64,000 nt of DNA from Candidatus Magasanikiibacteriota bacterium (GTDB taxonomy: Bacteria; Patescibacteriota; Patescibacteriia; Magasanikbacterales; GWA2-37-8). The stretch lies in assembly GCA_041678665.1 (NCBI GenBank), contig JBAYNU010000002.1:5039-69038 (forward strand), read 5' to 3'. Position 1 is the first letter of the stretch, and each line of letters opens with the position of its first letter. Below, piece by piece: positions 3,278-60,752 of this stretch. A program made the translations under genes and the position numbers. The notes under the pieces are model-generated. The model did no database searches and had not been told where the DNA came from. It saw only the letters and a list, made by a program, of their open reading frames with translations.

Positions 3278-3904
3278 ATGTCTAAAGTTTACGATTCAAT
3301 TTGTTCTCAATGCCGCCGCGCCGGTCAGAAGTTATTTTTAAAAGGAGAGAAGTGTTTAGGGCCAAAATGTCCGATGATTAAAAGAAATTTTATTCCCGGA
3401 CAGCATGGTCCGACCGCCAGAAATAAAAAGTTATCTGGCTACGGCAAACAACTCCGCGAAAAGCAACAAGCCAAAAAAATGTATGGCTTGCGCGAAAAAC
3501 AATTTGCCAATTACGTATCCGAAGCTTCGCGAAAAACCGGTGATACCAGTAAATATTTTGTTACTTATTTGGAATCACGTTTGGACAATGCGGTATTTCG
3601 CATGGGCTTGGTAACGTCTCGTTCAGCTGCGCGCCAATTGGTTAGCCATGGCAATATCACTGTTAACGGTAAAAAAGTAGATATTCCATCTTACCGTGTT
3701 TCCGTCGGAGAAGAGATTGCCCTCAAAGAAAGCATGAAAAGCAGAAAATTGTTTGAAAATATTTTTGAACGACTGTCTAAGATAGAAGCGCCGTCATGGA
3801 TGCATGTTGATGCTAAAAAGGTATCTTTTAAAGTGTTAAATACCCCAACTTTAGATAGCGCGCCATTTAACTCCAAAGCCATCATCGAGTTTTATTCTCG
3901 TTAG
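3278..3904 (+). CDS. rpsD: 30S ribosomal protein S4
   Basis: N-terminal C4 zinc ribbon (CSQCRR...CLGPKCP), S4 domain. Confidence 0.95.
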   Translation: MSKVYDSICSQCRRAGQKLFLKGEKCLGPKCPMIKRNFIPGQHGPTARNKKLSGYGKQLREKQQAKKMYGLREKQFANYVSEASRKTGDTSKYFVTYLESRLDNAVFRMGLVTSRSAARQLVSHGNITVNGKKVDIPSYRVSVGEEIALKESMKSRKLFENIFERLSKIEAPSWMHVDAKKVSFKVLNTPTLDSAPFNSKAIIEFYSR

Positions 3905-16873: not shown

Positions 16874-17815
16874 ATGCACAGATTACCCTATCAGGACGAC
16901 TTTATTTTAAACCTGCGAGCAAACAACTTTTCCGAAGAAACCGCCTATAATTACGAGCGTGATTTGAATACTTTTGAATCTTTTCTTAATAACGATGTTA
17001 AAAAACCGTTTGAGGATGCTACCAAAACCGATATTTTGCGTTTCAAGGCCTATCTATCTTCCACTGACCGCAAAACTGCCACTGAACATCGTTCTAAACA
17101 AAAGCTAGGTAGTTTTTCTATCAACCGTATTTTATCGGCTCTGCGATCGTATCTAAAATTTTTAGAAGATATGGATCGTAAACCGCCCGTATCTTCGGCT
17201 ACGGTCAAATTATTAAAAACCGAGAAAAAGAACGCTCGAGTGCCAGAATTTGAGGAAATTATAAAAATAATCGAAGCGCCAACTAAGTATGAGGACGATG
17301 AAAAAGTCGCCCTACGTAATCGCGCCATGCTTGAGACACTTTTTGCTACCGGTATGCGCATTTCGGAGCTTTTATCGCTTCGGGTGCGTCAAATTGACCA
17401 AACCGGACGGGTATATATCATGGGAAAAGGGAAAAAACAACGATTTGCGTATCTCACTCCACGCGCTTTAGCCCATGTAAAAAATTATATCATCAAGCGC
17501 AACAGCACTTCGGAAATGTTATTTGTTCCCTACCGCGGACGAAATAGTCAAGAAAAGGACAAAAAAATCTCCGCCAATTATTTACAATTCAAAATAAAAC
17601 GTTACCGAGAATTGTTGGATGTAAATATTCCGGTGAGCGCACATACTTTACGCCATGCCTTTGCCACTTTTATGGCAGAAAAAGGCGCCAATCCGGCCGC
17701 TATTCAAATTTTGCTTGGTCACGAGTCTTTGGATACCACCACGCGCTATGTTCATGCTTCCGACAGATACGCGGAAAAAACTCACCACGAATTTCATCCA
17801 TTATTTAATAAATAA
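16874..17815 (+). CDS. xerD: tyrosine site-specific recombinase XerC/XerD family
   Basis: R...HxxR...Y catalytic motifs (LRHAFATFM...LGHESLDTTTRYVH). Confidence 0.85.
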   Translation: MHRLPYQDDFILNLRANNFSEETAYNYERDLNTFESFLNNDVKKPFEDATKTDILRFKAYLSSTDRKTATEHRSKQKLGSFSINRILSALRSYLKFLEDMDRKPPVSSATVKLLKTEKKNARVPEFEEIIKIIEAPTKYEDDEKVALRNRAMLETLFATGMRISELLSLRVRQIDQTGRVYIMGKGKKQRFAYLTPRALAHVKNYIIKRNSTSEMLFVPYRGRNSQEKDKKISANYLQFKIKRYRELLDVNIPVSAHTLRHAFATFMAEKGANPAAIQILLGHESLDTTTRYVHASDRYAEKTHHEFHPLFNK

Positions 17816-20405: not shown

Positions 20406-21980
20406 TTATGATATTAATTTTTTAATAGCTATTTTGATTCTGTTTATAGTTTCGTCTTTTTTCAGAACTTCAGCAATTTCAAATGGCCCCGGTGATTTAT
20501 CTTGTCCAGACAGGGCAACTCGCAGAGGCCATAAAATCTCTCCGTTATTATAATTATTTTCTTTAATCCACTCCCCTATTTTAATTTCTAAATCACTCTT
20601 ATTCCAAGATTGAACACTAAAAGTATTCAGCAACTCTTCTAGGCCCGGTAAAACTTTTGTCACAGTCTCCATATTACTCTTTTTCCATACCAAAAGCGAG
20701 CTGTCATATTCTGGTAATTCAAACACAAATGCTAATGCTTTCGGCAGCTCCGCGAGTGTCGCGACTCTTTCACGCTCCAATGGTAACGCCTTTGTTAGTT
20801 GTTCATTATTAATTGTTAATTTACTGGTTTTAAAAAAAGGTACCACTCTTTCCACTAAATTTTCTAACGGCAGGCGTTTAATATACTCTTTATTAAACCA
20901 ATCCAATTTTTCCAAATTAAATACCGCTCCGGATTTATTTACTTTGGCAAAATCAAATTCTTTAATCAAATCCTCTAAAGTAAAAAGCTCGCGATTGTCT
21001 CCCGGATTCCAACCTAAAAATGCTACAAAATTTATAACTGCTTCCGGCAAATAACCTTTTTTAATATAATCCTCCACCGCCACATCACCCTGGCGCTTGC
21101 TTAACTTGGATTTGTCGAAATTCAAAAGCAGGGGCAAGTGAGCGAATTCGGGCGGCTGCCAGCCGAAATATTTATAAAGCTGTAAATGTTTGGGAGTGCT
21201 GGAAATCCACTCTTCGCCACGACTGGCGACGGTAATCCCCATTAGATGATCGTCCACTACTACGGCCAAATGGTAAGTGGGAAAGCCATCGGATTTAATA
21301 ATTACCTGATCATCAACCAGCTCATTTTTTATTCTGATTTCCCCACGAATTAGATCATTAAAAACCGTTTCGCCGAATTTTGGCATTTTCATGCGAATAA
21401 CATGCTTTTCGCCGCCCGCGATACGTTTTTTGGCTTCCTGAGGATCAATGCCGGCGCATAAACCATCGTATCCGGTTGGTATTTTATTTTTCTGCTGCTT
21501 TTCTCGTAATTCCATTAAACGCTCCGATGAACAAAAACAATAATAAGCGTGACCTCTATCTAATAATTCCTGGGCATATTTTTGATAAATTTCCAAACGT
21601 TCAGACTGTATATATGGTCCACGTTTACCCACCTGCGCCACACAATTGTCATTCTGAGGCGCAGCTGAAGAATCCTTTTGGCTTTCAGGTGACAAGAGAT
21701 CCTTCCCTGAAGGGGTCCCTTTGGGATGCCCGCTCAGGATGACATTATCAGCGCTCTTTTTTAAAACTACGCCCTCATCTGGAACCAGGCCGGCCCAAAC
21801 TAAGGAATTTAAAATATTTTTTACGCCATCCTCGACAAATCGCTCGCGGTCGGTATCCTCGATACGCAACAAAAACTGTCCGCCGTGTTTCTTGGCGTAA
21901 AGATAGGCATACAAAGCCGTGCGCAAACCGCCAATATGCAAATAACCGGTGGGACTAGGAGCAAAACGAGTTCTAATCAT
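20406..21980 (-). CDS. gltX: glutamyl-tRNA synthetase carrying an in-frame insertion of about 33 aa derived from a palindromic repeat
   Basis: HIGG and KMSK class I motifs; 524 aa; insertion ...SPESQKDSSAAPQNDNCVAQVG... is encoded by repeat 21646..21745. Confidence 0.9.
   Translation of the reverse strand: MIRTRFAPSPTGYLHIGGLRTALYAYLYAKKHGGQFLLRIEDTDRERFVEDGVKNILNSLVWAGLVPDEGVVLKKSADNVILSGHPKGTPSGKDLLSPESQKDSSAAPQNDNCVAQVGKRGPYIQSERLEIYQKYAQELLDRGHAYYCFCSSERLMELREKQQKNKIPTGYDGLCAGIDPQEAKKRIAGGEKHVIRMKMPKFGETVFNDLIRGEIRIKNELVDDQVIIKSDGFPTYHLAVVVDDHLMGITVASRGEEWISSTPKHLQLYKYFGWQPPEFAHLPLLLNFDKSKLSKRQGDVAVEDYIKKGYLPEAVINFVAFLGWNPGDNRELFTLEDLIKEFDFAKVNKSGAVFNLEKLDWFNKEYIKRLPLENLVERVVPFFKTSKLTINNEQLTKALPLERERVATLAELPKALAFVFELPEYDSSLLVWKKSNMETVTKVLPGLEELLNTFSVQSWNKSDLEIKIGEWIKENNYNNGEILWPLRVALSGQDKSPGPFEIAEVLKKDETINRIKIAIKKLIS
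21646..21745. repeat. palindromic dispersed repeat, family A copy (TGTCATTCTGAGG...CTCAGGATGACA), in-frame inside gltX
   Basis: terminal inverted repeats plus internal GAAGAATCC core shared with copies at 44400, 45579, 47714, 55814, 57744. Confidence 0.7.
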
Positions 21981-35661: not shown

Positions 35662-36615
35662 GTGATTTCTGTAAATTTTTTTGGCACACATGATTTTGCG
35701 GCGGGAATTTTACAGGCGCTAATTGACAGCGCTGATTTTGAAATTAAAACCGTTTTCACGGTGCCGGATAAACCGATTGGTCGCCATCAGGAAATACAAA
35801 AATCTTCGGTAAAAATTTTGGCGGAAAAATATGGATTAAGAGTTGAACAACCGGAATCTCTACAAAATTTTTCCTTACTCCTTACTCCTTACTCCTTAAA
35901 CATCGTCTGCGATTACGGTTTGCTGATACCGAAAAACATTATTGATGCCCCGGGTCATGGCTCTCTCAATGTCCACCCTTCTCTACTCCCAAAATACCGC
36001 GGAGCGACACCTGTTCAGACGGCTTTAATGAATGGTGACAGCGAAACCGGTGTGACAATAATGCTGATGGATGAGAAGCTGGATCATGGCCCGATTTTGG
36101 CGTGGAAAACGATCAAAATTGATCCGACCGACAATTACACATCTTTGAGTGAAAAACTTCTAGAAACGGCCAAATCTTTGCTTATAGACACTGTCCAAAA
36201 GTGGGTTTTAGGGCCAAAAATGCCCCCCCAACCCCAGGATGACTCCAAGGCGACTGTTTGCCACGAATTGACTCGCGCTGATGGCCAGGTGGACTTCTCC
36301 GGTCAAACCGCCCAGCAGGTTTATAATCGCTTCCGCGCCCTTACCCCTTGGCCGGGGGTGTGGACGATGCTGGGTGGAAAACGGGTAAAACTACTATCTG
36401 TCATTACCGCCATGCCTACCGGCAGGCAGGCGAAAGCAGGAATCTGTGGCAGATCCCGGGTCAAGCCCGGGATGACAGCTATTGCGGATAATCAAATATT
36501 TTTTACCTGCGCCGATGGTAATCCAATCGAAGTATTAGAACTCCAAATGGAAGGAAAAAAACCAATGACTGCCAAAGAATTTATTAACGGATATAAAACA
36601 CTTCTCCATGCATAA
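35662..36615 (+). CDS. fmt: methionyl-tRNA formyltransferase (contains two short repeat-derived segments)
   Basis: formyl transferase N domain (NVHPSLLPKYRGATP) and C-terminal domain; tandem CCTTACTC x3 at 35872-35899 and a family-A-variant segment at 36410-36480. Confidence 0.9.
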   Translation: MISVNFFGTHDFAAGILQALIDSADFEIKTVFTVPDKPIGRHQEIQKSSVKILAEKYGLRVEQPESLQNFSLLLTPYSLNIVCDYGLLIPKNIIDAPGHGSLNVHPSLLPKYRGATPVQTALMNGDSETGVTIMLMDEKLDHGPILAWKTIKIDPTDNYTSLSEKLLETAKSLLIDTVQKWVLGPKMPPQPQDDSKATVCHELTRADGQVDFSGQTAQQVYNRFRALTPWPGVWTMLGGKRVKLLSVITAMPTGRQAKAGICGRSRVKPGMTAIADNQIFFTCADGNPIEVLELQMEGKKPMTAKEFINGYKTLLHA

Positions 36616-43091: not shown

Positions 43092-43544
43092 TTAATATTC
43101 TAAATTACTATAACGTCGATTGGTAAAAATAACCGCCTCTAAAATAACAAATAAAACTACTAAAATTATTCCGTTCCACCAAGTTAACAATTTTTCTTGT
43201 AATAAAAACAAGGCAAAAATAATCAAGGTGGTAAAAATAACACTTTGGCGAAAAGTCTTTTTTACATGACGAAAAATAACCTCATCATTTTTTACAATCG
43301 CTCGCCGCACCAAAAATACTATTACCGAAAATGTACCGACTAACGCCAAAAATAAACTCAAATAAAAGAAAGCCAAGCCTAATGTCCCGGCGCTATTGGG
43401 ATCTAAACTCAAAATTACAAATACCCAAGTTCCCCAGCAAATCAAAGTACCTAGCGACATCAAAATTAAATATTGACGGAGGGTCATATGACATTGTTTA
43501 GTAAACTGTATTTTATCCCAAAATACCTTATTTGGCAAGACCAT
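43092..43544 (-). CDS. hypothetical membrane protein
   Basis: 150 aa, 3-4 TM helices. Confidence 0.4.
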   Translation of the reverse strand: MVLPNKVFWDKIQFTKQCHMTLRQYLILMSLGTLICWGTWVFVILSLDPNSAGTLGLAFFYLSLFLALVGTFSVIVFLVRRAIVKNDEVIFRHVKKTFRQSVIFTTLIIFALFLLQEKLLTWWNGIILVVLFVILEAVIFTNRRYSNLEY

Positions 43545-43567: not shown

Positions 43568-46500
43568 CTAAGCCCTAAATTCGCAAATATCCCTAAAATC
43601 ACATCGTCCACAAATAAATTGACTGGGGGTGGCGGCAAAATCACGAGCGTGAATACGCTGGATAGTTTCAAGCATTTTTTCTTGCACTGCGACAATTTCT
43701 TTTTCAGAACCAAAAAATGATATCTGGGAATTTTGGTTGAGATAATAAAAAGTTAATTTACTAACAACACCAATATGATAATATTCTGGAAGCGTTTTTA
43801 CAGCCAACTGGTAAATTAATAGCTGATTTTTGTCGTCGCTCGATAATTTTTCTTTACCTTTGCCGGTTTTGTAATCCACGATATGCAATGAGCCATCGGG
43901 TAATTGATCAATACGATCAATGCGACCGCTTACCGTGAACCCGCCAATTTTTATACGAAATGACCCTTCAAGTGTAACCGGAACTGTCCAGCCATTTTTT
44001 TCATTTTCTTCATAAAATTTTTTGAGCACTTCTTTGCCTTCGGTATAATAAGTGTCACGCTGACCCTTGCTTTCGTACCAATCATCAATCCAGTGTTGAT
44101 CGTAAATTTCCAACAATTCTTTAATTTCGGGTATTTTTAGGTTACCGGATTTTTTTAAGATCGTAATCGAACTGAACAATGAATCTTGGGTGGCGCTATT
44201 TAAAACGCGCGCGCGTTCATAAAATGCCTGTAAGGTTCCATGCATGCTTTGGCCAAAACTGAAATTAGCATTACCTTTGGTGGGTATGCCGACAACATTG
44301 GCCAGCTTGTATTGATACGGACAGGTAGAATATGAATTAAGCTGTGAATAAGAAAATCGTTCGGGGAGATGATAAATTGAATCAGAACGAACTTGATCAT
44401 TGTCATTCTGAGCGGAGCGAAGCGAAGTCGAAGAATCCTTTAAACTTTGCAATCGAAGGGATTCCTCCGCTCGCCCTGCGGGCTCGGTCGGAATGACAAA
44501 TTCACTTACTCCTTTTTCCTTGCTCCTTAATCCTTTCGCCTCGTATCCGAGCTCGCTCAAAAACCGACTGTTTTTTTTCTGTCGACTGCCACCATAATCA
44601 TCAGCACTGGTTAGATATAACTTTTCCTTAGCGCGGGTCATCGCCACATAAAACAACCTTCGTTCTTCTTCGATATGCTCGTCGCCTTCCGGTAATTGCT
44701 CTTTGATTAATTCAAAAGGAATTTCAATCGCTTCGGATCTCGCGCGCGATGGAAAACGTTCTTCCACCAAATTTACTACAAACACGTATTTAAATTCCAA
44801 ACCCTTGGAGCCATGAATAGTTAAAATATTCACCGAGTCAGGGGTATCCACCATTTGATGTAATGATCCCTTGTCGCCTGAATCCACAATGTAATTAAAA
44901 TGTTCCAAAAATCCAGATACGGTCGCGCCGGCTTCGGCGGTTTCATAAGCCGAAATATATTCCAAAAATTGCTTAAGCTGGTGAATTTGTCGAATGGCGC
45001 CGCGATTACCTGCTTCTTCTTGTTTTATTAAATAACTAAAATATCCACTTTCTTCCAACCACTCCACCAAAAGCGTGGTTGGTTTGCTATTACCAACCTT
45101 GGTTTGTCCAGTTTTAATCCAAGAAGTAATTTTTTGAGCAAGTTCAAATCCAGCAACGGATAAATATAATTCCGAAGCGCGCCTAAGCGACTCGAAATAG
45201 GAAACAGATTTCTTTTTGGCAAAAGAAGTTATTTTTTGGATATCCTCGGCTGGAAATTGTAAAAACGACAAATTTAACAAACGGAATATCGCGGTTGATT
45301 CGTGGTGATTATCTAATAATTTAAGAAAGTTGATACAGTCCAAAACAATGGGCTGACGATAAAGCCCGGCTGAAGCGATAAATTCGTATGGTATCCCCTG
45401 TTTTTCCAAAGCATTAATAAACGGATCGGCATGCGCGTTGGCTCTCACCAAAATGGCAAAATCATCCCAGGTCGCGCTTTCGTTGATGGTTCTGAGCCGC
45501 GCGATTTCGTCAACCACGCTTTTTACTTCTTCATCCAGTGTGGTAGAGTGAATGTGACAGACGCTCGCCGTTCGCGCGTTGTCATTCTGAGGCGTAGTCG
45601 AAGAATCCCTTCTACTTCGAACGTTAAAGGATCCTTCGCTTCGCTCAGGATGACAATTTGCGGTGAGTCGCTTATTTATTTTGAGCTTCACCTCCAACCG
45701 ATCCGGATTATTATTCTGAATAGATTTATATGCCAAATCCAAAATTTCCTGGCAAGAACGATAATTTTCATTAAGAACAATTTCTTTGGCCTGCGAATAG
45801 TCTTCTTTAAACCGTAAAATATTATTCACGCTGGCACCGCGAAAAGCATAGATTGACTGGTCATCGTCGCCAACGACGGTAAGCTGGTTTTCTTCGCCTG
45901 CAATCATTTGTACCAACTGGTATTGCGCCCAGTTCACATCCTGAAATTCATCCACCAAAATATATTTATAACGCTCGCGTAATAATTTCAAAATATTCGG
46001 TCGTTCACGCAATAATTTTATGGTGTAAAAAATCAAATCGCCAAAATCAAGCGCGCTGTTATCAAGAAGTAATTGATTATACGCGTGATAGGCGTTGGCG
46101 ATTTCGGAAAGGCGTTTAAAATCGACGGCGGCATTACTGTCATTCCCGTGAAAACGGGAATCCGCGACTTCTGGGGCAGATCCCCGCTTTCGCCTGCCTG
46201 CCGGCAGGCATGGCGGGGATGACAATGTAGAATCGCTGTCCAACTTCATCCCTTCCGCATACTCCAAATATTCTTGCGGTGTAATAAGTTCATCTTTACA
46301 TTTAGAAAAATGTTTTAAGAGTTCGTGAATATGCTTGGCTGGGTTTCCCAAAGGTCGATAATAATCCAAATCAAATTTATCTAAATTGCGCCGCACCAAA
46401 AGCCAAGCGTCGGTTTCGGTAAGTAATTTAAATTGATTAGGTAGACCAATGTCCAATCCATGATTTTCCAAAATCCGCTGGCAAAAAGCATGGAAGGTGG

Positions 46501-46756
46501 AAATTTGCATATCCACATATCCGAGCTCAAGCATTTCATCCACGCGCGTTTGCATTTCTCCGGCTGCCTTTTCCGTAAAAGTCAACGCCAAAATTTGCTC
46601 GGGAGTAGCGAGTTTATTTTCTATTAAATGTGTAATTTTTTGCGTAATTACCGTGGTCTTACCGGTACCGGCGCCCGCCACAATCAAAAGCGGGCCGGAG
46701 GCATATTCCACGGCCTGTTTTTGCGCGGGGTTGAGAGGGTATTTTGGCATAATCAT
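43568..46756 (-). CDS. UvrD/PcrA-family SF1 DNA helicase fused to C-terminal Cas4/RecB-type PD-(D/E)xK nuclease domain with Cys4 cluster; carries three in-frame repeat-derived insertions
   Basis: GAGTGKT Walker A; C-terminal GRIDRID, VDYKTGK, QLLIYQLA nuclease motifs and STCPY...CGRCDFRDIC cysteines; 1062 aa. Confidence 0.85.
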   Translation of the reverse strand: MIMPKYPLNPAQKQAVEYASGPLLIVAGAGTGKTTVITQKITHLIENKLATPEQILALTFTEKAAGEMQTRVDEMLELGYVDMQISTFHAFCQRILENHGLDIGLPNQFKLLTETDAWLLVRRNLDKFDLDYYRPLGNPAKHIHELLKHFSKCKDELITPQEYLEYAEGMKLDSDSTLSSPPCLPAGRRKRGSAPEVADSRFHGNDSNAAVDFKRLSEIANAYHAYNQLLLDNSALDFGDLIFYTIKLLRERPNILKLLRERYKYILVDEFQDVNWAQYQLVQMIAGEENQLTVVGDDDQSIYAFRGASVNNILRFKEDYSQAKEIVLNENYRSCQEILDLAYKSIQNNNPDRLEVKLKINKRLTANCHPERSEGSFNVRSRRDSSTTPQNDNARTASVCHIHSTTLDEEVKSVVDEIARLRTINESATWDDFAILVRANAHADPFINALEKQGIPYEFIASAGLYRQPIVLDCINFLKLLDNHHESTAIFRLLNLSFLQFPAEDIQKITSFAKKKSVSYFESLRRASELYLSVAGFELAQKITSWIKTGQTKVGNSKPTTLLVEWLEESGYFSYLIKQEEAGNRGAIRQIHQLKQFLEYISAYETAEAGATVSGFLEHFNYIVDSGDKGSLHQMVDTPDSVNILTIHGSKGLEFKYVFVVNLVEERFPSRARSEAIEIPFELIKEQLPEGDEHIEEERRLFYVAMTRAKEKLYLTSADDYGGSRQKKNSRFLSELGYEAKGLRSKEKGVSEFVIPTEPAGRAEESLRLQSLKDSSTSLRSAQNDNDQVRSDSIYHLPERFSYSQLNSYSTCPYQYKLANVVGIPTKGNANFSFGQSMHGTLQAFYERARVLNSATQDSLFSSITILKKSGNLKIPEIKELLEIYDQHWIDDWYESKGQRDTYYTEGKEVLKKFYEENEKNGWTVPVTLEGSFRIKIGGFTVSGRIDRIDQLPDGSLHIVDYKTGKGKEKLSSDDKNQLLIYQLAVKTLPEYYHIGVVSKLTFYYLNQNSQISFFGSEKEIVAVQEKMLETIQRIHARDFAATPSQFICGRCDFRDICEFRA
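44400..44499. repeat. family A palindromic repeat copy, in-frame inside the helicase gene
   Basis: TTGTCATTCTGAGCG...GAAGAATCC...CGGAATGACAA. Confidence 0.7.
45579..45656. repeat. family A palindromic repeat copy, in-frame inside the helicase gene
   Basis: TTGTCATTCTGAGGCG...GAAGAATCC...GGATCCTTC...CGCTCAGGATGACAA. Confidence 0.75.
46138..46225. repeat. family A variant copy (TGTCATTCCCG...CGGGGATGACA, internal GCCTGCCGGCAGGC palindrome), in-frame inside the helicase gene
   Basis: terminal IRs; related fragments at 36410-36480, 31320-31345, 46763-46790. Confidence 0.65.
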
Positions 46757-46892
46757 TACCTATCATTCCGATGAAAATCGGGATCTTTTACTATCGTATT
46801 TTACCCTACTTTCCGCTCATTGACAAGAAAACATTTTTATGCTAAAACAATACTATGTTTTCTAATCCAAACATCCAAGCAAGGAGAGAAAA

Positions 46893-47183
46893 ATGAAACA
46901 CAACGAAAGAGTCATCAATGCCGTGGTAATAGGGGCATTGATACTGGTATTCCTCCTGTGGTGGGGGCTAGCCAATGACTACGCGTCTTTTAAAAAGATG
47001 TGCGCGTTGTCAGAAGAAGCAGCTTGTCGTGAGGCAGGTTATGCTCCGCCCATCGTATGGAGCATGAATGAGAAAGCGCTCTTTTGCCATGACGACAAAG
47101 GGCTAAAACACCAAATAAAGATTCCAGCCTGCAACTGCAAGTTGGACCCTGGAGCGAAAGAATGCCGCTTCTTGAAAAAGTAA
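46893..47183 (+). CDS. hypothetical small secreted or membrane-anchored Cys-containing protein
   Basis: 96 aa, N-terminal hydrophobic helix, 6 Cys; strong AAGGAG SD; elevated GC. Confidence 0.5.
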   Translation: MKHNERVINAVVIGALILVFLLWWGLANDYASFKKMCALSEEAACREAGYAPPIVWSMNEKALFCHDDKGLKHQIKIPACNCKLDPGAKECRFLKK

Positions 47184-47186
47184 AAC

Positions 47187-47227
47187 AGACCGTGCAATCA
47201 GGGAGGATTGCACGGTCTCTATTTTTA
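47187..47227 (+). terminator. intrinsic terminator (copy 1 of a duplicated 52-nt segment)
   Basis: AGACCGTGCAATC-agggag-GATTGCACGGTCT 13-bp perfect stem followed by TATTTTTAT. Confidence 0.8.
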
Positions 47228-47303: not shown

Positions 47304-47636
47304 ATGAAAAAATATAAATGGGCAGTAGTATATTTATTTTTGGTCTTGCTCTTTTGGCAACTCGGCAATTTATTAAATGCCCACACCGAAAAGCTCAAAG
47401 CAGGTTTCATACTTTCGCAAGAAGCTTTATCGCTCTATTGCTATCATCGCTTCGGCGATGAAAGTGAAAAAGTAATGATAACAATAGGCGACACACAGCT
47501 GGAAAAAAAAGATTATACGATGTGTTTTGTCCCGCGAGAAGGGGCTCTCTACTTTATTGTGAGCCTAAATCAATGTACGAACACGCAGGACTATGACGAC
47601 TGCATGTTCCTCACCGGGGCGGCGGAAGAATTTTGA
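47304..47636 (+). CDS. hypothetical small secreted or membrane-anchored Cys-containing protein
   Basis: 110 aa, N-terminal hydrophobic helix, 4 Cys; AGGAGG SD. Confidence 0.5.
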   Translation: MKKYKWAVVYLFLVLLFWQLGNLLNAHTEKLKAGFILSQEALSLYCYHRFGDESEKVMITIGDTQLEKKDYTMCFVPREGALYFIVSLNQCTNTQDYDDCMFLTGAAEEF

Positions 47637-47650
47637 GCATAGCTTCAAAC

Positions 47651-47692
47651 AGACCGTGCAATCAGGGAGGATTGCACGGTCTCTATTTTTTA
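47651..47692 (+). terminator. intrinsic terminator (copy 2, identical to 47187..47227)
   Basis: same 13-bp stem followed by T-run. Confidence 0.8.
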
Positions 47693-47713: not shown

Positions 47714-47796
47714 TTGTCATTCTGAGGAAGTGAAACGACCGAAGAATCCCTTAAATCACAAAGTCAAAGAGATCCTTCGCTTCGCTCAGGATGACA
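47714..47796. repeat. family A palindromic repeat copy (intergenic)
   Basis: TTGTCATTCTGAGG...GAAGAATCC...GATCCTTCGCTTCGCTCAGGATGACAG. Confidence 0.7.
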
Positions 47797-50026: not shown

Positions 50027-50169
50027 ACAAAGAAGGAATAAAGAATAAGGATTAAGGAATAAACGAACACAAAATATATTTACTCCTTAATTTTTATTCC
50101 TTACTCATTATTATACCACAACCAAAAAACCCGGCAATACAACCGGGCTTTCGTGTCAAGTAGGGTAAA

Positions 50170-50604: not shown

Positions 50605-50673
50605 ATTTATTTACGATACACGATACATGGAAAATGATACATTTGTATATTATTCCATGTATTTTGCATGCTG

Positions 50674-52065
<1,392 letters not shown>

Positions 52066-52434
52066 TTAAGAGTTGGTTTTAAGATAATTAATAATATGAT
52101 CTAAAAATAATTTTCCTTTCTCGATATCATCATCTGTAGTCCGATCTGGATCGCGCTTAGGCATCGCTTGGACAAACTCGATAAAATTTTCACACTCACT
52201 TCGTATTTCTGTGCTAAGTGTTTGGTCCCTTCTTAATAGACTTACTATTTCTGACGCAATACTCGAAAACCAAGCACCACGACATCTATAATTATAATAA
52301 TTAGGATGGTCTGGTTTTAAAATCTCCGACGGTATATCATCTGTCCACTTTCTGTCATCCCGTAACTCTAGGATATTCTCCAAAACTTGTTTTCTGATTA
52401 ATTCGACCGGGTATCCTTGGGTTTCTGTGCTCAT
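52066..52434 (-). CDS. hypothetical protein inserted between atpG and atpD
   Basis: 122 aa, acidic, no recognisable family; not a canonical atp operon member. Confidence 0.5.
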   Translation of the reverse strand: MSTETQGYPVELIRKQVLENILELRDDRKWTDDIPSEILKPDHPNYYNYRCRGAWFSSIASEIVSLLRRDQTLSTEIRSECENFIEFVQAMPKRDPDRTTDDDIEKGKLFLDHIINYLKTNS

Positions 52435-53399: not shown

Positions 53400-53425
53400 A
53401 CTTAACAATATACAAAATACATGGA

Positions 53426-53797
53426 TTACGATACACTTTCTATTTTTTCTTCTAATTTATCTATTGTCACCCAAATCATTTTTCCTATTTCATTAGACAT
53501 TTCCAAACCGACATTATATTCATCTTTACTAATCCAGTTCTGAATAAACGCGAAATATATTATATACTTACATTCTTGCGACGAACCATGTGATATCTCA
53601 TAAAAATTTAACTTAACTTTGTCTCGCCTACGCGCGTATCCCTCAACATAATTCAACATTATAGACATTGATGCTCGGCGCAACTGCGAACTAACGCCAT
53701 ACAATTCATTACTTGGAAAATTTTTCACTATCTGATAACAGTATAAAACGAATCTATTAATTTTATTTTTCAACAATACATGAAATTTTCCCTCCAT
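53426..53797 (-). CDS. four-helix-bundle protein (23S rRNA intervening-sequence protein family) inserted between atpA and atpG
   Basis: LRRASMSIMLNYVEGYARR...HGSSQECKYIIYFA core matches the TIGR02436-type four-helix-bundle family; flanked by inverted repeats. Confidence 0.75.
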   Translation of the reverse strand: MEGKFHVLLKNKINRFVLYCYQIVKNFPSNELYGVSSQLRRASMSIMLNYVEGYARRRDKVKLNFYEISHGSSQECKYIIYFAFIQNWISKDEYNVGLEMSNEIGKMIWVTIDKLEEKIESVS

Positions 53798-53828
53798 ATA
53801 AATTTGTATATTTTTCCATGTATATTGT

Positions 53829-55319
53829 CTATTGTTTCACAAACTCTTCACAAGCCCCCTTCAATTCCGCTTCAATCTTTTCATCCCAATCCGCTTTGGC
53901 GATTTTGCTCAAAAGCGCGGATTTGGAACGATTGAAAAATTCATGAAATTTATTTTCCCATGTTTGCATCCCGGCTACCGGCACGTTATCGGCAAAACCA
54001 TTGGACACGGCGTAAATAATTGCCACTTGGTTGGCCACATTCATCGGCTGATATTGCGGTTGTTTGAGCACTTCCACTAAACGCTGGCCCAAATCAATTT
54101 GTTTTTTGGTGGCTGGATCAAGGTCGGACGCAAACTGGGCAAACGCTTCCAACTCACGGAACTGGCCCATGTTTAATTTTAATTTGCCAGCGACTTTTTT
54201 CATGGGTTTAATTTGAGCATCACCACCTACACGCGACACGGATAAGCCCACATTTACGGCCGGGCGAATACCACGGAAATACAAATCCGATTCCAAAAAT
54301 ATCTGACCGTCGGTAATGGAAATTACATTGGTAGGAATATAGGCGGTCACATCACCGGCTTGAGTTTCGATAATTGGTAAAGCGGTAATGGATCCACCGC
54401 CGGCTTCTTTATTGCGGCGACAAGCGCGCTCCAAAAGACGAGAATGAAGATAAAACACATCACCCGGATAGGCCTCGCGACCCGGTGGGCGACGCAGTAA
54501 AAGCGAAATTTCACGGTAAGCCCAAGCCTGTTTAGATAAGTCATCATACACGCAGAGCACATCTTTACCTTGGTCCATAAAATATTCCGCCATGGCCACA
54601 CCGGCATAGGGCGCAATATAAGAAAGTGAAGCGGGCTGCGACGCGCCAGCCACCACGACGATTGTATAGTCCATAGCGCCATGTTCTTTGAGTTTAGCTA
54701 CAATACGCGCGATCTTGGATTCTTTTTGACCGATGGCCACATACACACAAATCATGTTCTGACCTTTTTGATTGATAATTGTATCAATGGCCAAAGCAGT
54801 TTTCCCAATCTGGCGATCGCCAATGATAAGTTCGCGCTGACCGCGCCCAATTGGAAACATAGCATCAATAGATTTAATGCCGGTCTGCACTGGTTGGTTA
54901 ACCCGTTCGCGCTTCATTACACCTGGAGCAATTTTTTCGATTGGATAAAACTTTTCGGTTTTAATTTCCACACCGCCATCAATTGCTTTGCCCAAAGGAT
55001 TTACCACACGACCAATAAGTTGTTCACCTACTGGAACAGATAAAATGCGACCAGTGCGCTTAACAGTATCACCTTCTTTAATATGGGTATATTCACCCAA
55101 AAGCACCGAGCCAACGGTTTCTTCCTCGAGGTTTAAGGCCACACCATATGTACCGCCAGAAAACTCAAGCATTTCGCTGGCCTGACATTGCGAAAGTCCA
55201 CTCATACGAGCAATTCCGTCGCCGACTTCGATTACTTTTCCCACTTCTTCCACTTCTACTTGTTTTTCAAAAGCGGAAATATTTTTGCGCAGTTCTTCTA
55301 CTATGGAATTGATAGACAT
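53829..55319 (-). CDS. atpA: F1 ATP synthase alpha subunit
   Basis: GDRQIGKT P-loop; start at [10 protein letters not shown]. Confidence 0.95.
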
Positions 55320-55406: not shown

Positions 55407-55799
55407 TTATGATAATTTTTGTTTTAATCGCGCTAATTGTCTTTTTACACTCGCATCAAAAATAACTTCATCGGACTTAACTACTACTCCGCCAATAATA
55501 TCTTTATCTACAATCGGTGTAACTTCGCCTTGACTGGAAAAAACATCACCAATTTTAATTAATTCCTTATCGCTCATGCCACGAGCCGTTACCACATCCA
55601 AAGACACTATCCCCTGTTCTTTTTTGGCGTATTTTACAAATTCAGCAATTACCCGTTCGGCTTGTTTTAATTTATGCGCGCGCGCCAAAATTTTTACAAA
55701 TTCCGCGAGGATAATATGTAATTTTTCACCCTTCAAATCTTTGGTCAGCTCATACAAAGCTTTGGCGTATTGGGTTGTAGTGGTTTTCTTTTTGGGCAT
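55407..55799 (-). CDS. atpH: F1 ATP synthase delta (OSCP) subunit, short form
   Basis: OSCP-like helices; start placed at MPKKK because the 28 codons upstream are the translation of repeat 55814..55915. Confidence 0.7.
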   Translation of the reverse strand: MPKKKTTTTQYAKALYELTKDLKGEKLHIILAEFVKILARAHKLKQAERVIAEFVKYAKKEQGIVSLDVVTARGMSDKELIKIGDVFSSQGEVTPIVDKDIIGGVVVKSDEVIFDASVKRQLARLKQKLS

Positions 55800-55813
55800 A
55801 ATTGTTTTCGTTG

Positions 55814-55915
55814 TTGTCATCCTGAGTGAGCGAAGCGAATCGAAGAATCTGTGATTATTCGCCGATAAATTCTTCGACTTCATTCACCTTTGGCTCATTT
55901 CGCTCAGAATGACAA
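55814..55915. repeat. family A palindromic repeat copy, atpF-atpH intercistronic
   Basis: TTGTCATCCTGAGTGAGCGAAGCGAATCGAAGAATC...GAATTCTTCGAC...CGCTCAGAATGACAA. Confidence 0.7.
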
Positions 55916-57743: not shown

Positions 57744-57801
57744 TTGTCATCCTGAGTGAAACGAAGGATCTAGATTCTTCGACTACGCCTCAGAATGACA
57801 A
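57744..57801. repeat. family A palindromic repeat copy (short form), exactly fills the atpZ-atpB intercistronic gap
   Basis: TTGTCATCCTGAGTGAAACGAAGGATCTAGATTCTTCGACTACGCCTCAGAATGACAA. Confidence 0.7.
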
Positions 57802-60701: not shown

Positions 60702-60752
60702 ATGTTAAGGATTAAGGAATAAAGAGTAAGGAATAAATTATTTAGTCCACTA

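Follow-up and report, generated by a model that had tools for sequence, protein, structure and literature searches.

How a single gene can take up three copies of a palindromic repeat and still encode an intact protein is the question raised by a 64,000-nucleotide stretch of DNA (the window, in the following) from a Candidatus Magasanikiibacteriota bacterium (GenBank assembly GCA_041678665.1, contig JBAYNU010000002.1, positions 5,039 to 69,038 of the forward strand). The gene is predicted to encode a UvrD-type helicase fused to an iron-sulfur-type nuclease and contains three inverted dimers, designated A, B and C, of a hairpin repeat tagged with TGTC. Judged by its conserved motifs, the product is probably a functional housekeeping helicase-nuclease of Candidatus Magasanikbacteria, in which three in-frame dimers of a repetitive extragenic palindrome (REP) are tolerated in permissive loops. 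The features on which this interpretation is built are given below, with positions of the window, lengths in amino acids (aa) or nucleotides (nt) and, for the dimers, the z score of RNA folding and the range of low predicted local distance difference test (pLDDT) values in the structure model.

43568..46756, minus strand: helicase-nuclease open reading frame (ORF), 1062 aa; likely true start M3 at 46750
44603..46735, minus strand: superfamily 1A (SF1A) UvrD/PcrA-type motor, aa 8-718; all motor motifs intact
43580..44359, minus strand: PD-(D/E)XK (RecB/Cas4-family) nuclease domain, aa 800-1059; catalytic residues invariant
44321..44323, minus strand: C812, first putative iron-sulfur ligand (STCPY); invariant in 60/60 homologues
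43583..43612, minus strand: C1049-x2-C1052-x5-C1058, putative iron-sulfur ligands; invariant in 60/60 homologues, same tail in ACE1 (9iac_A)
46138..46224, minus strand: dimer A, 87 nt, aa 178-207, in a loop of subdomain 1B; z -5.7; pLDDT <50 over 175-205
45580..45655, minus strand: dimer B, 76 nt, aa 368-393, in a variable loop before the strand of aa 399-406; z -5.0; pLDDT <50 over 372-395
44401..44498, minus strand: dimer C, 98 nt, aa 753-786, in the helicase-nuclease linker; z -2.7; pLDDT <50 over 742-793

The ORF was confirmed with these boundaries, in a region of 39-42% GC. An identical protein is deposited at NCBI (MFA7653614.1, from a metagenome-assembled genome of Candidatus Magasanikbacteria) with 1060 aa and a start at M3, and another in a JGI record with the full 1062 aa. 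Since the same protein is present in two assembly records, the inserts are not an artefact peculiar to one of them. The first ATG of the ORF (46756) is probably not the start, the NCBI protein and all homologues beginning at M3 (46750).

Helicase motor and nuclease domain

An earlier reading of the locus, made without database searches (the sequence-only reading), had described the 1062-aa ORF as having an SF1 UvrD/PcrA core, and this description was borne out. The Pfam profiles UvrD-helicase (PF00580) and UvrD_C (PF13361) match aa 8-320 (E 2.6e-80) and aa 326-718 (E 1.6e-52), respectively. The motor motifs, namely Walker A (GAGTGKT), DEFQD, GDDDQSIYAFRGA, NYRS, TIHGSKGLEF and VAMTRAK, are intact and invariant in 60 of 60 homologues. 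Further invariant positions, found in alignments of 18 and 60 sequences, comprise the Q-motif region, GDDDQSIY.FRG, H648/K651/G652/E654 and T707-R708-A709. The nearest solved structures for the helicase part are PcrA/UvrD (E ~1e-82) and AdnB (E 9e-54), and a four-subdomain fold (1A/1B/2A/2B) was recovered in Foldseek comparisons with UvrD, PcrA and Rep (E ~5e-35, target-normalised TM score ~0.65). For aa 1-740, PcrA, UvrD and Rep come closest in both sequence (approximately 28% identity) and fold and share the canonical motifs, but PcrA and UvrD have no nuclease domain. In the NCBIfam scan, PcrA, Rep, UvrD, AddA and RecB models were matched strongly, every one below its equivalog cutoff (PcrA TIGR01073, 460 versus 911; UvrD TIGR01075, 338 versus 1144; Rep TIGR01074, 391 versus 951; AddA TIGR02785, 212 versus 708; RecB TIGR00609, 184 versus 696).

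The C-terminal region gave a full-length match to PDDEXK_1 (PF12705, aa 800-1059, E 1.8e-36, 126.7 bits versus a cutoff of 22) and a marginal one to the Cas4 profile PF01930. NCBIfam matches of this region were confined to AddB, Cas4 and TIGR03623 models, with the Cas4 model TIGR00372 reaching a score of 43, below its cutoff of 65. The profile of the C-terminal domain also matched the nuclease domains of AdnA and AdnB (E 1.7e-5) as well as structures of the Cas4-family protein ACE1. E930, D947, D961, K963, Q978 and Y982 and the motifs GRIDRID, IVDYKTGK and QLLIYQ are invariant in 60 of 60 homologues, and so are C812, C1049, C1052 and C1058, i.e. one N-terminal and three C-terminal cysteines, the latter spaced CxxCx5C. 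The nuclease motifs can be aligned to those of AdnA and AdnB, and D961 falls on the catalytic D1014 of AdnB, the residue mutated in nuclease-dead AdnB structures. Both the PD-(D/E)xK motifs and the cysteine set proposed in the sequence-only reading were confirmed by these alignments and by the matches to PD-(D/E)XK and Cas4-type profiles. One plus three cysteines in this arrangement make up the "iron staple" described for Cas4, AddB and AdnA, and we infer from the invariant motifs that the nuclease domain carries such a four-cysteine iron-sulfur staple. The domain resembles Cas4 and ACE1 in its D..DxK..QxxxY core, its one-plus-three cysteine pattern and its CxxCx5C tail. Those proteins are, however, stand-alone or CRISPR- or prokaryotic Argonaute (pAgo)-associated and approximately 200-280 aa long, whereas the nuclease described here is fused to a helicase and encoded in a housekeeping context.

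Relation to AddAB and AdnAB

Homologues of the helicase-nuclease are found in thousands, nearly all of them in Patescibacteria and usually 972-990 aa long. After the identical record, the best match has 62% identity, and about a quarter of the 120 best homologues reach 1000 aa or more. AddAB and AdnAB are similar in that they, too, have a UvrD-like motor and, behind it on the same polypeptide, a RecB-family nuclease, and the fold matches include AddA and AdnB. On the other hand, they are heterodimers encoded by adjacent genes, in which the iron-sulfur nuclease is borne by AddB or AdnA, the subunit whose domain is inactivated or motor-like. Here, one gene combines a motif-intact motor with an iron-sulfur-type nuclease, and its scores are far below the AddA and RecB equivalog cutoffs. 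Since the iron-sulfur nuclease sits on AddB and AdnA, the protein would combine a live motor of the AddA/AdnB/PcrA type with a nuclease of the AddB/AdnA/Cas4 type. The "AddA/AdnB-like" architecture named in the sequence-only reading therefore applies to the single-chain combination of motor and nuclease and to the motor itself, but not to the nuclease, which is of the iron-sulfur type of AddB, AdnA and Cas4.

The context scan covered every sizeable ORF of the 64-kb window. No second helicase or nuclease ORF was found in it or beside the orthologues at two syntenic loci (L121 and L122), in line with the earlier statement that no partner subunit is encoded nearby. By its predicted domains, the protein is of a known kind, a UvrD-type helicase fused to a Cas4/RecB-family iron-sulfur nuclease, within an uncharacterised single-chain family of Patescibacteria. 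The predicted combination of a live motor with an iron-sulfur nuclease, with no partner in the 64 kb, is a new element of this finding. The single-chain enzyme is widespread and may be chiefly responsible for end processing in these reduced genomes.

The repeat element

Each arm of the repeat consists of a (T/C)TGTC tag, a stem that always starts with AT, a variable loop and the complementary strand ending in AT, followed by C. The pattern TGTCATYCY-N(8-38)-RGRATC has 14 matches in the window (0.01 expected), and six of these arms, forming three dimers, lie in the helicase-nuclease gene. In all 16 arms of the window, the tag stands unpaired directly ahead of the stem. The arms are always paired as inverted dimers with the tags outermost, giving eight dimers of 55-99 nt, of which the five outside the helicase-nuclease gene (listed without a strand) are:

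21647..21744: dimer in gltX, in-frame (ORF 20406..21980, minus strand)
36399..36477: dimer in fmt, in-frame (ORF 35662..36615, plus strand)
47715..47796: intergenic dimer; stops in 5/6 frames
55815..55914: dimer at the atpF/atpH junction; stops in 6/6 frames
57745..57800: compact intergenic dimer beside atpB, of the same repeat family

The clamp at the base of the stem covaries, with six variants present (ATTCT/AGAAT, ATCCT/AGGAT, ATTGC/GCAAT, ATTCC/GGAAT, ATCCC/GGGAT and ATTTC/GAAAT), which points to selection on the hairpin rather than on the encoded peptide. Three arms have perfect 8-bp stems; the loop measures 4-5 nt in two of them and is long and expanded in the third (46224). Both arms of dimer A have perfect 8-bp stems (ATCCCCGC/GCGGGGAT and ATTCCCGT/ACGGGAAT). 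In the remaining arms, a 5-bp clamp is combined either with a GAA loop on an interrupted stem or with a loop that is expanded. The arms of dimer B are identical to those at 57773-57800 and 47771-47796, which is consistent with recent copying. No Rfam family was matched at the gathering threshold, and relaxed E-values gave chance-level matches only.

At the atpF/atpH junction, the listed atpH ORF (55407..55883) starts inside the dimer, and its OSCP match begins only at residue 30, so the dimer may supply or displace the start codon.

Position and reading frame of the inserts

Dimers A, B and C (87, 76 and 98 nt) encode LSSPPCLPAGRRKRGSAPEVADSRFHGND, CHPERSEGSFNVRSRRDSSTTPQND and VIPTEPAGRAEESLRLQSLKDSSTSLRSAQND, respectively, and account for the extra length of the protein over the usual family length. 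Three in-frame repeat copies had already been noticed in the sequence-only reading, and their presence was confirmed. The 13-aa peptides listed there do not, however, give the extent of the inserts, which are whole inverted dimers: the peptides cover only the 3' end of each element (..QND or ..GND, from the ATGACA terminus) plus native flank. All three inserts are located where most homologues have alignment gaps, and they coincide with three of the long coil segments of pLDDT <50 in the AlphaFold model (overall pLDDT 77, predicted template modelling score 0.73). The loop with dimer B lies between the "KLKINKRL" segment (aa 357-364) and a conserved strand (aa 399-406). As judged from the structure prediction, which had been suggested earlier for this purpose, the inserts are in variable loops of low pLDDT outside motifs I-VI, and none of them touches the nuclease core.

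At the RNA level, all three dimers of the gene fold better than shuffled controls, and no internal terminators were predicted at the three inserts. The five dimers of the window that are fully intragenic are all open in the frame of the host gene, while the three non-genic copies contain stops in five or six of the six frames. For the gltX dimer and dimer C, only one of six frames is open, and it is the one in use. A rough calculation gives a probability of approximately 1e-4 that five random insertions would all keep the frame and introduce no stop. That five of five intragenic dimers are in-frame and open indicates that selection has filtered for intact ORFs, which argues both against a pseudogene and against an excision of the elements before translation.

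Occurrence in orthologues and other phyla

In the alignment of 60 sequences, extra segments cluster at about eight hot spots, and many of them contain peptides derived from the tags (..RNDN, ..RGNDN, VIPTEP.., SFRPEP.. and CHPD..). The orthologue P0019 (locus L121, GCA_964533715.1) harbors four dimers in the gene and one arm at its start, i.e. up to five elements in all. Loops B and C are shared with P0019 but the arm variants differ, which suggests independent insertions into the same permissive loops. Further in-frame dimers of L121 are located inside atpG and a radical-SAM gene. Two identical 50-nt arms were found at different loops of the P0019 gene (10943-10993 and 11321-11371 of L121), which suggests that an arm was duplicated or transposed inside this one gene very recently.

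At least 120 contigs (one genome per species) from more than ten phyla contain exact copies of the 26-nt arm TGTCATYCTGAGCGAAGCGAAGRATC, including Acidobacteriota, Nitrospirota, Chloroflexota, Bacillota, Bacteroidota, Verrucomicrobiota, Planctomycetota, Gemmatimonadota, Cyanobacteria, Proteobacteria and the Candidate Phyla Radiation (CPR). This spread, with its strict sequence identity across phyla, is much wider than the five phyla of the 2013 paper on CGTC REPs (see below). Outside the CPR, the element appears to be mainly intergenic, as in Mucilaginibacter, where an inverted dimer is located between convergent genes. In-frame insertion in other phyla was considered and discarded, the long ORFs that span arms in high-GC genomes being apparently spurious or having the arm at the gene end. 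No recurrent neighbouring gene family or transposase was found near the arm among 120 loci from many phyla. A link of such hairpins with small GIY-YIG genes was rejected, such genes being near one of 139 arms in a regular-expression scan and two of 120 loci in the clustering. In one of these cases, a small GIY-YIG-type ORF directly follows a REP arm (333-686 of locus L087, peptide CHPEEEQSDDEGS); at two of 120 loci, the arrangement is not general.

Comparison with known palindromic repeats

Judged by the published description, the repeat of the window matches the CGTC/TGTC-tagged REP superfamily. The superfamily includes the Rickettsia palindromic elements (RPEs) RPE-4 and RPE-6 of R. conorii and dRS3 of Neisseria (Di Nocera et al. 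2013, PMC3733652). Its members have stems of 8-9 bp that "almost invariably" start with complementary AT, short loops (4-5 nt) and C-rich tails, and mostly form inverted dimers without a dedicated transposase (PMC3733652). Intragenic copies are reported in genes for UvrD/Rep helicases, RecB, UvrA, PolA and tRNA synthetases, where related species have them in similar positions (PMC3733652). The window repeat agrees with this description in its unpaired (C/T)GTC tag, the A-T/T-A start of the stem, the C-rich tail, the inverted dimers, the short loops of some arms (GAAA in one) and the lack of a dedicated flanking transposase, and it is likewise found inside UvrD-type helicase and aminoacyl-tRNA synthetase genes. 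It differs in its host, a member of the CPR (Patescibacteria) and thus outside the five phyla of PMC3733652, in its high density in essential genes, and in the structure of many arms, in which a 5-bp clamp leads either into G·A mismatches with a GCGAAGC core or into an expanded loop.

According to the summary in PMC10969869 (after Ogata et al. 2000/2002), the RPEs of Rickettsia, in which this insertion behaviour was described, are palindromic selfish repeats inserted in-frame in housekeeping ORFs, and they are the classic precedent for it. They are similar to the window dimers in residing in a small genome and in extending the protein by a hydrophilic peptide where the fold permits it, but with approximately 100-150 bp they are longer than the window dimers (55-99 nt). 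Set against the RPEs, the window dimers are read in several frames of one element (CHPE.., VIP.. and LSS..; ..QND and ..GMT). In the literature searched, no report was found of such in-frame palindromic repeats in the CPR, nor of this repeat sequence or its peptides. In-frame REP- or RPE-like palindromic dimers tolerated in surface loops are therefore a known kind of phenomenon, and what is new here is the lineage, the density (three dimers in this gene, as many as five in an orthologue, and further ones in gltX, fmt and atpG) and the recurrent use of the same loops.

Proposed origin and consequences of the insertions

In the proposed mechanism, a catalytically complete SF1A motor, by analogy to its family, would translocate in 3' to 5' direction on single-stranded DNA, connected through a flexible linker with a PD-(D/E)XK nuclease of the RecB/Cas4 family that a four-cysteine iron-sulfur staple would stabilise. 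The enzyme would probably act alone or as a homo-oligomer, without a partner of the AddB or AdnA type. Three inverted dimers of the TGTC-tagged hairpin repeat would have been inserted into the gene and would be read through as approximately 25-33 extra hydrophilic residues each, with little effect on function. The dimers would survive because the frame is kept, no stops occur in the frame used and a variable, disordered surface loop or linker was hit, and the helicase-nuclease gene would hold many of them because it is long and offers several permissive loops. Some points weigh against this reading. Three of the eight elements of the window are in a gene that makes up 5% of it (binomial p ~0.006, calculated post hoc); the clustering is mainly attributed to the number of tolerant loops, but a real target preference could also play in. 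The predicted RNA hairpins amount to 30-46 kcal/mol, and translation through them is an assumption. With the nearest homologue being only 62% identical, no empty-site allele is at hand that would fix the insertion boundaries or a target duplication; when metagenomes were scanned for empty-site strain variants by means of an exact 26-mer of the gene, all matches were unrelated UvrD genes (~28% identity) sharing motif III. Moreover, a partner subunit may be encoded elsewhere in the genome, and with all NCBIfam equivalog scores below their cutoffs, we infer the exact role, be it PcrA-like, AdnAB-like or both, from family resemblance.

Alternatively, the inserts may have been exapted, for example as structured mRNA elements tuning translation or stability or as disordered linkers modulating the helicase-nuclease, with the repair gene as a preferred or selected target. 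A preferred or selected insertion of REPs in repair genes has been raised as a speculation (Di Nocera et al., PMC3733652), and intragenic REPs are enriched in genes of the UvrD/RecB type according to the same work. The number of elements in this gene and in P0019, the proportion of long proteins among the best homologues, the recurrent hits in the same loops and the perfect stems kept in intragenic arms would all fit. However, most orthologues have no insert at any given site, genomes that share a site have different arm variants there, and the same elements occur in unrelated genes (gltX, fmt and atpG) and in intergenic DNA. In addition, the enrichment was calculated post hoc, and its length was the reason for picking P0019. 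Exaptation is therefore regarded as unlikely. Considerably less probable still is a pseudogene or a functionally crippled gene. Three foreign insertions within a single gene might suggest it, but the 1062-codon ORF is uninterrupted, all catalytic and structural motifs are invariant, the inserts are in variable loops only, and the orthologues with inserts are intact as well.

Removal of the elements before the mature protein is formed, by an intron-like excision of RNA, translational bypass or intein-like splicing, could draw on the strong hairpin of each element, which brings both ends together. It would, however, release the intragenic copies from the constraint on frame and stops that all five of them obey. 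Neither an Rfam intron or other family nor intein motifs were matched, the 76-98 nt of the elements are far below the size of group I or II introns, and the called genes in L121 run continuously through their elements. This explanation is thus very improbable, and the same holds for an anti-phage defence function as a helicase-nuclease similar to GajB of Gabija or to Nhi. PADLOC models of GajB were matched with E-values down to 2e-97, and GajB chains in the PDB match the helicase core, but these matches cover the generic UvrD core only. No GajA/OLD-type partner or other defence gene is located nearby, the whole window being housekeeping in content, and the position between the atp operon with an ABC transporter and mreBCD is kept in three genomes. 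Since, furthermore, thousands of orthologues of uniform length are present across Patescibacteria, a housekeeping role is much more likely than one in defence.

A more far-reaching possibility, rather improbable at present, is that the TGTC REP dimers are currently mobile in Magasanikbacteria and that they genuinely favour the helicase-nuclease gene as a target, or that the enzyme even takes part in hairpin processing. It is based on the identical arms at several sites and on the two identical copies in one orthologous helicase gene. Genomes of Magasanikbacteria are presumably very small; were this possibility true, the lineage would be a minimal system for finding the missing mobilising activity of CGTC/TGTC REPs and for demonstrating that REP insertion regularly supplies CPR proteins with new disordered loops. 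As no mobilising enzyme is known for the REP superfamily, small CPR genomes with recent copies could narrow down the candidates. With the preferred reading of tolerated insertions, the CPR joins Rickettsia and a few other bacteria in having essential genes colonised by in-frame palindromic repeats. For annotation, such inserts explain length outliers and low-confidence loops among CPR proteins, and the inserts are not to be taken as frameshifts or pseudogenes.

Gene neighbourhood

All sizeable ORFs of the window are housekeeping genes, among them the atp operon and the genes for ribosomal proteins, RpoA, ClpB, MreBCD, penicillin-binding protein 2 (PBP2), cell-wall enzymes and several aminoacyl-tRNA synthetases. 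The helicase-nuclease gene is neighboured by the genes for MreB/C/D and PBP2, by small ORFs and by an ABC transporter gene. No transposase gene is present in the 64-kb window, the sole recombinase being of the Xer type (16874..17815), and no gene of the REP-associated tyrosine transposase (RAYT) or IS200-like type was found within it. In two orthologue loci, the order atp operon, ABC transporter, small ORFs, helicase-nuclease, (DciA-like gene), small ORF and mreB is kept. The weakly DciA-like gene is directly downstream of the helicase-nuclease gene there (13423-13758 in L121, 7078-7368 in L122); in the window, only an ORF for a predicted 150-aa membrane protein (43092..43544) is located between the helicase-nuclease gene and mreB.

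Upstream of the helicase-nuclease gene, the following promoter-like site is present:

46798..46826, minus strand: TTGTCA-17-TAAAAT, a consensus match only

Two small cysteine-rich ORFs without a Pfam match (46893..47183 and 47304..47636) are also located directly upstream. Each of them is followed by one of two identical terminator-like hairpins of 44 nt (47183-47226 and 47647-47690).

The atp operon contains two unexplained small genes. One (ORF 53426..53797, PF05635, 23S rRNA intervening-sequence protein (IVP) or bAvd-like four-helix bundle) is found between atpA and atpG and is flanked by an inverted repeat of approximately 33 nt (53403-53435 and 53796-53836), of which a solo third copy is located between atpD and atpC (50618-50676). 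Gene and inverted repeat together look like a small mobile cassette. The atp operon of L121 likewise contains an IVP gene (3409-3795). An origin of the TGTC dimers as miniature derivatives of such cassettes was rejected, the L121 IVP gene having no TGTC arms at its flanks and the one in the window being flanked by a different inverted repeat. The other small gene of the operon encodes 122 aa without a Pfam match (52066..52434, minus strand) and is located between atpG and atpD.

A second repeat family in the window is a tandem heptamer (AAGGAGT/TAAGGAG; nine matches versus 0.17 expected) at 35872-35897, 44517-44535, 50047-50109 and 60707-60732. One of these sites is within fmt and one within the helicase-nuclease gene, where it codes for GLRSKEKGVSE directly N-terminal of dimer C; the others are intergenic.

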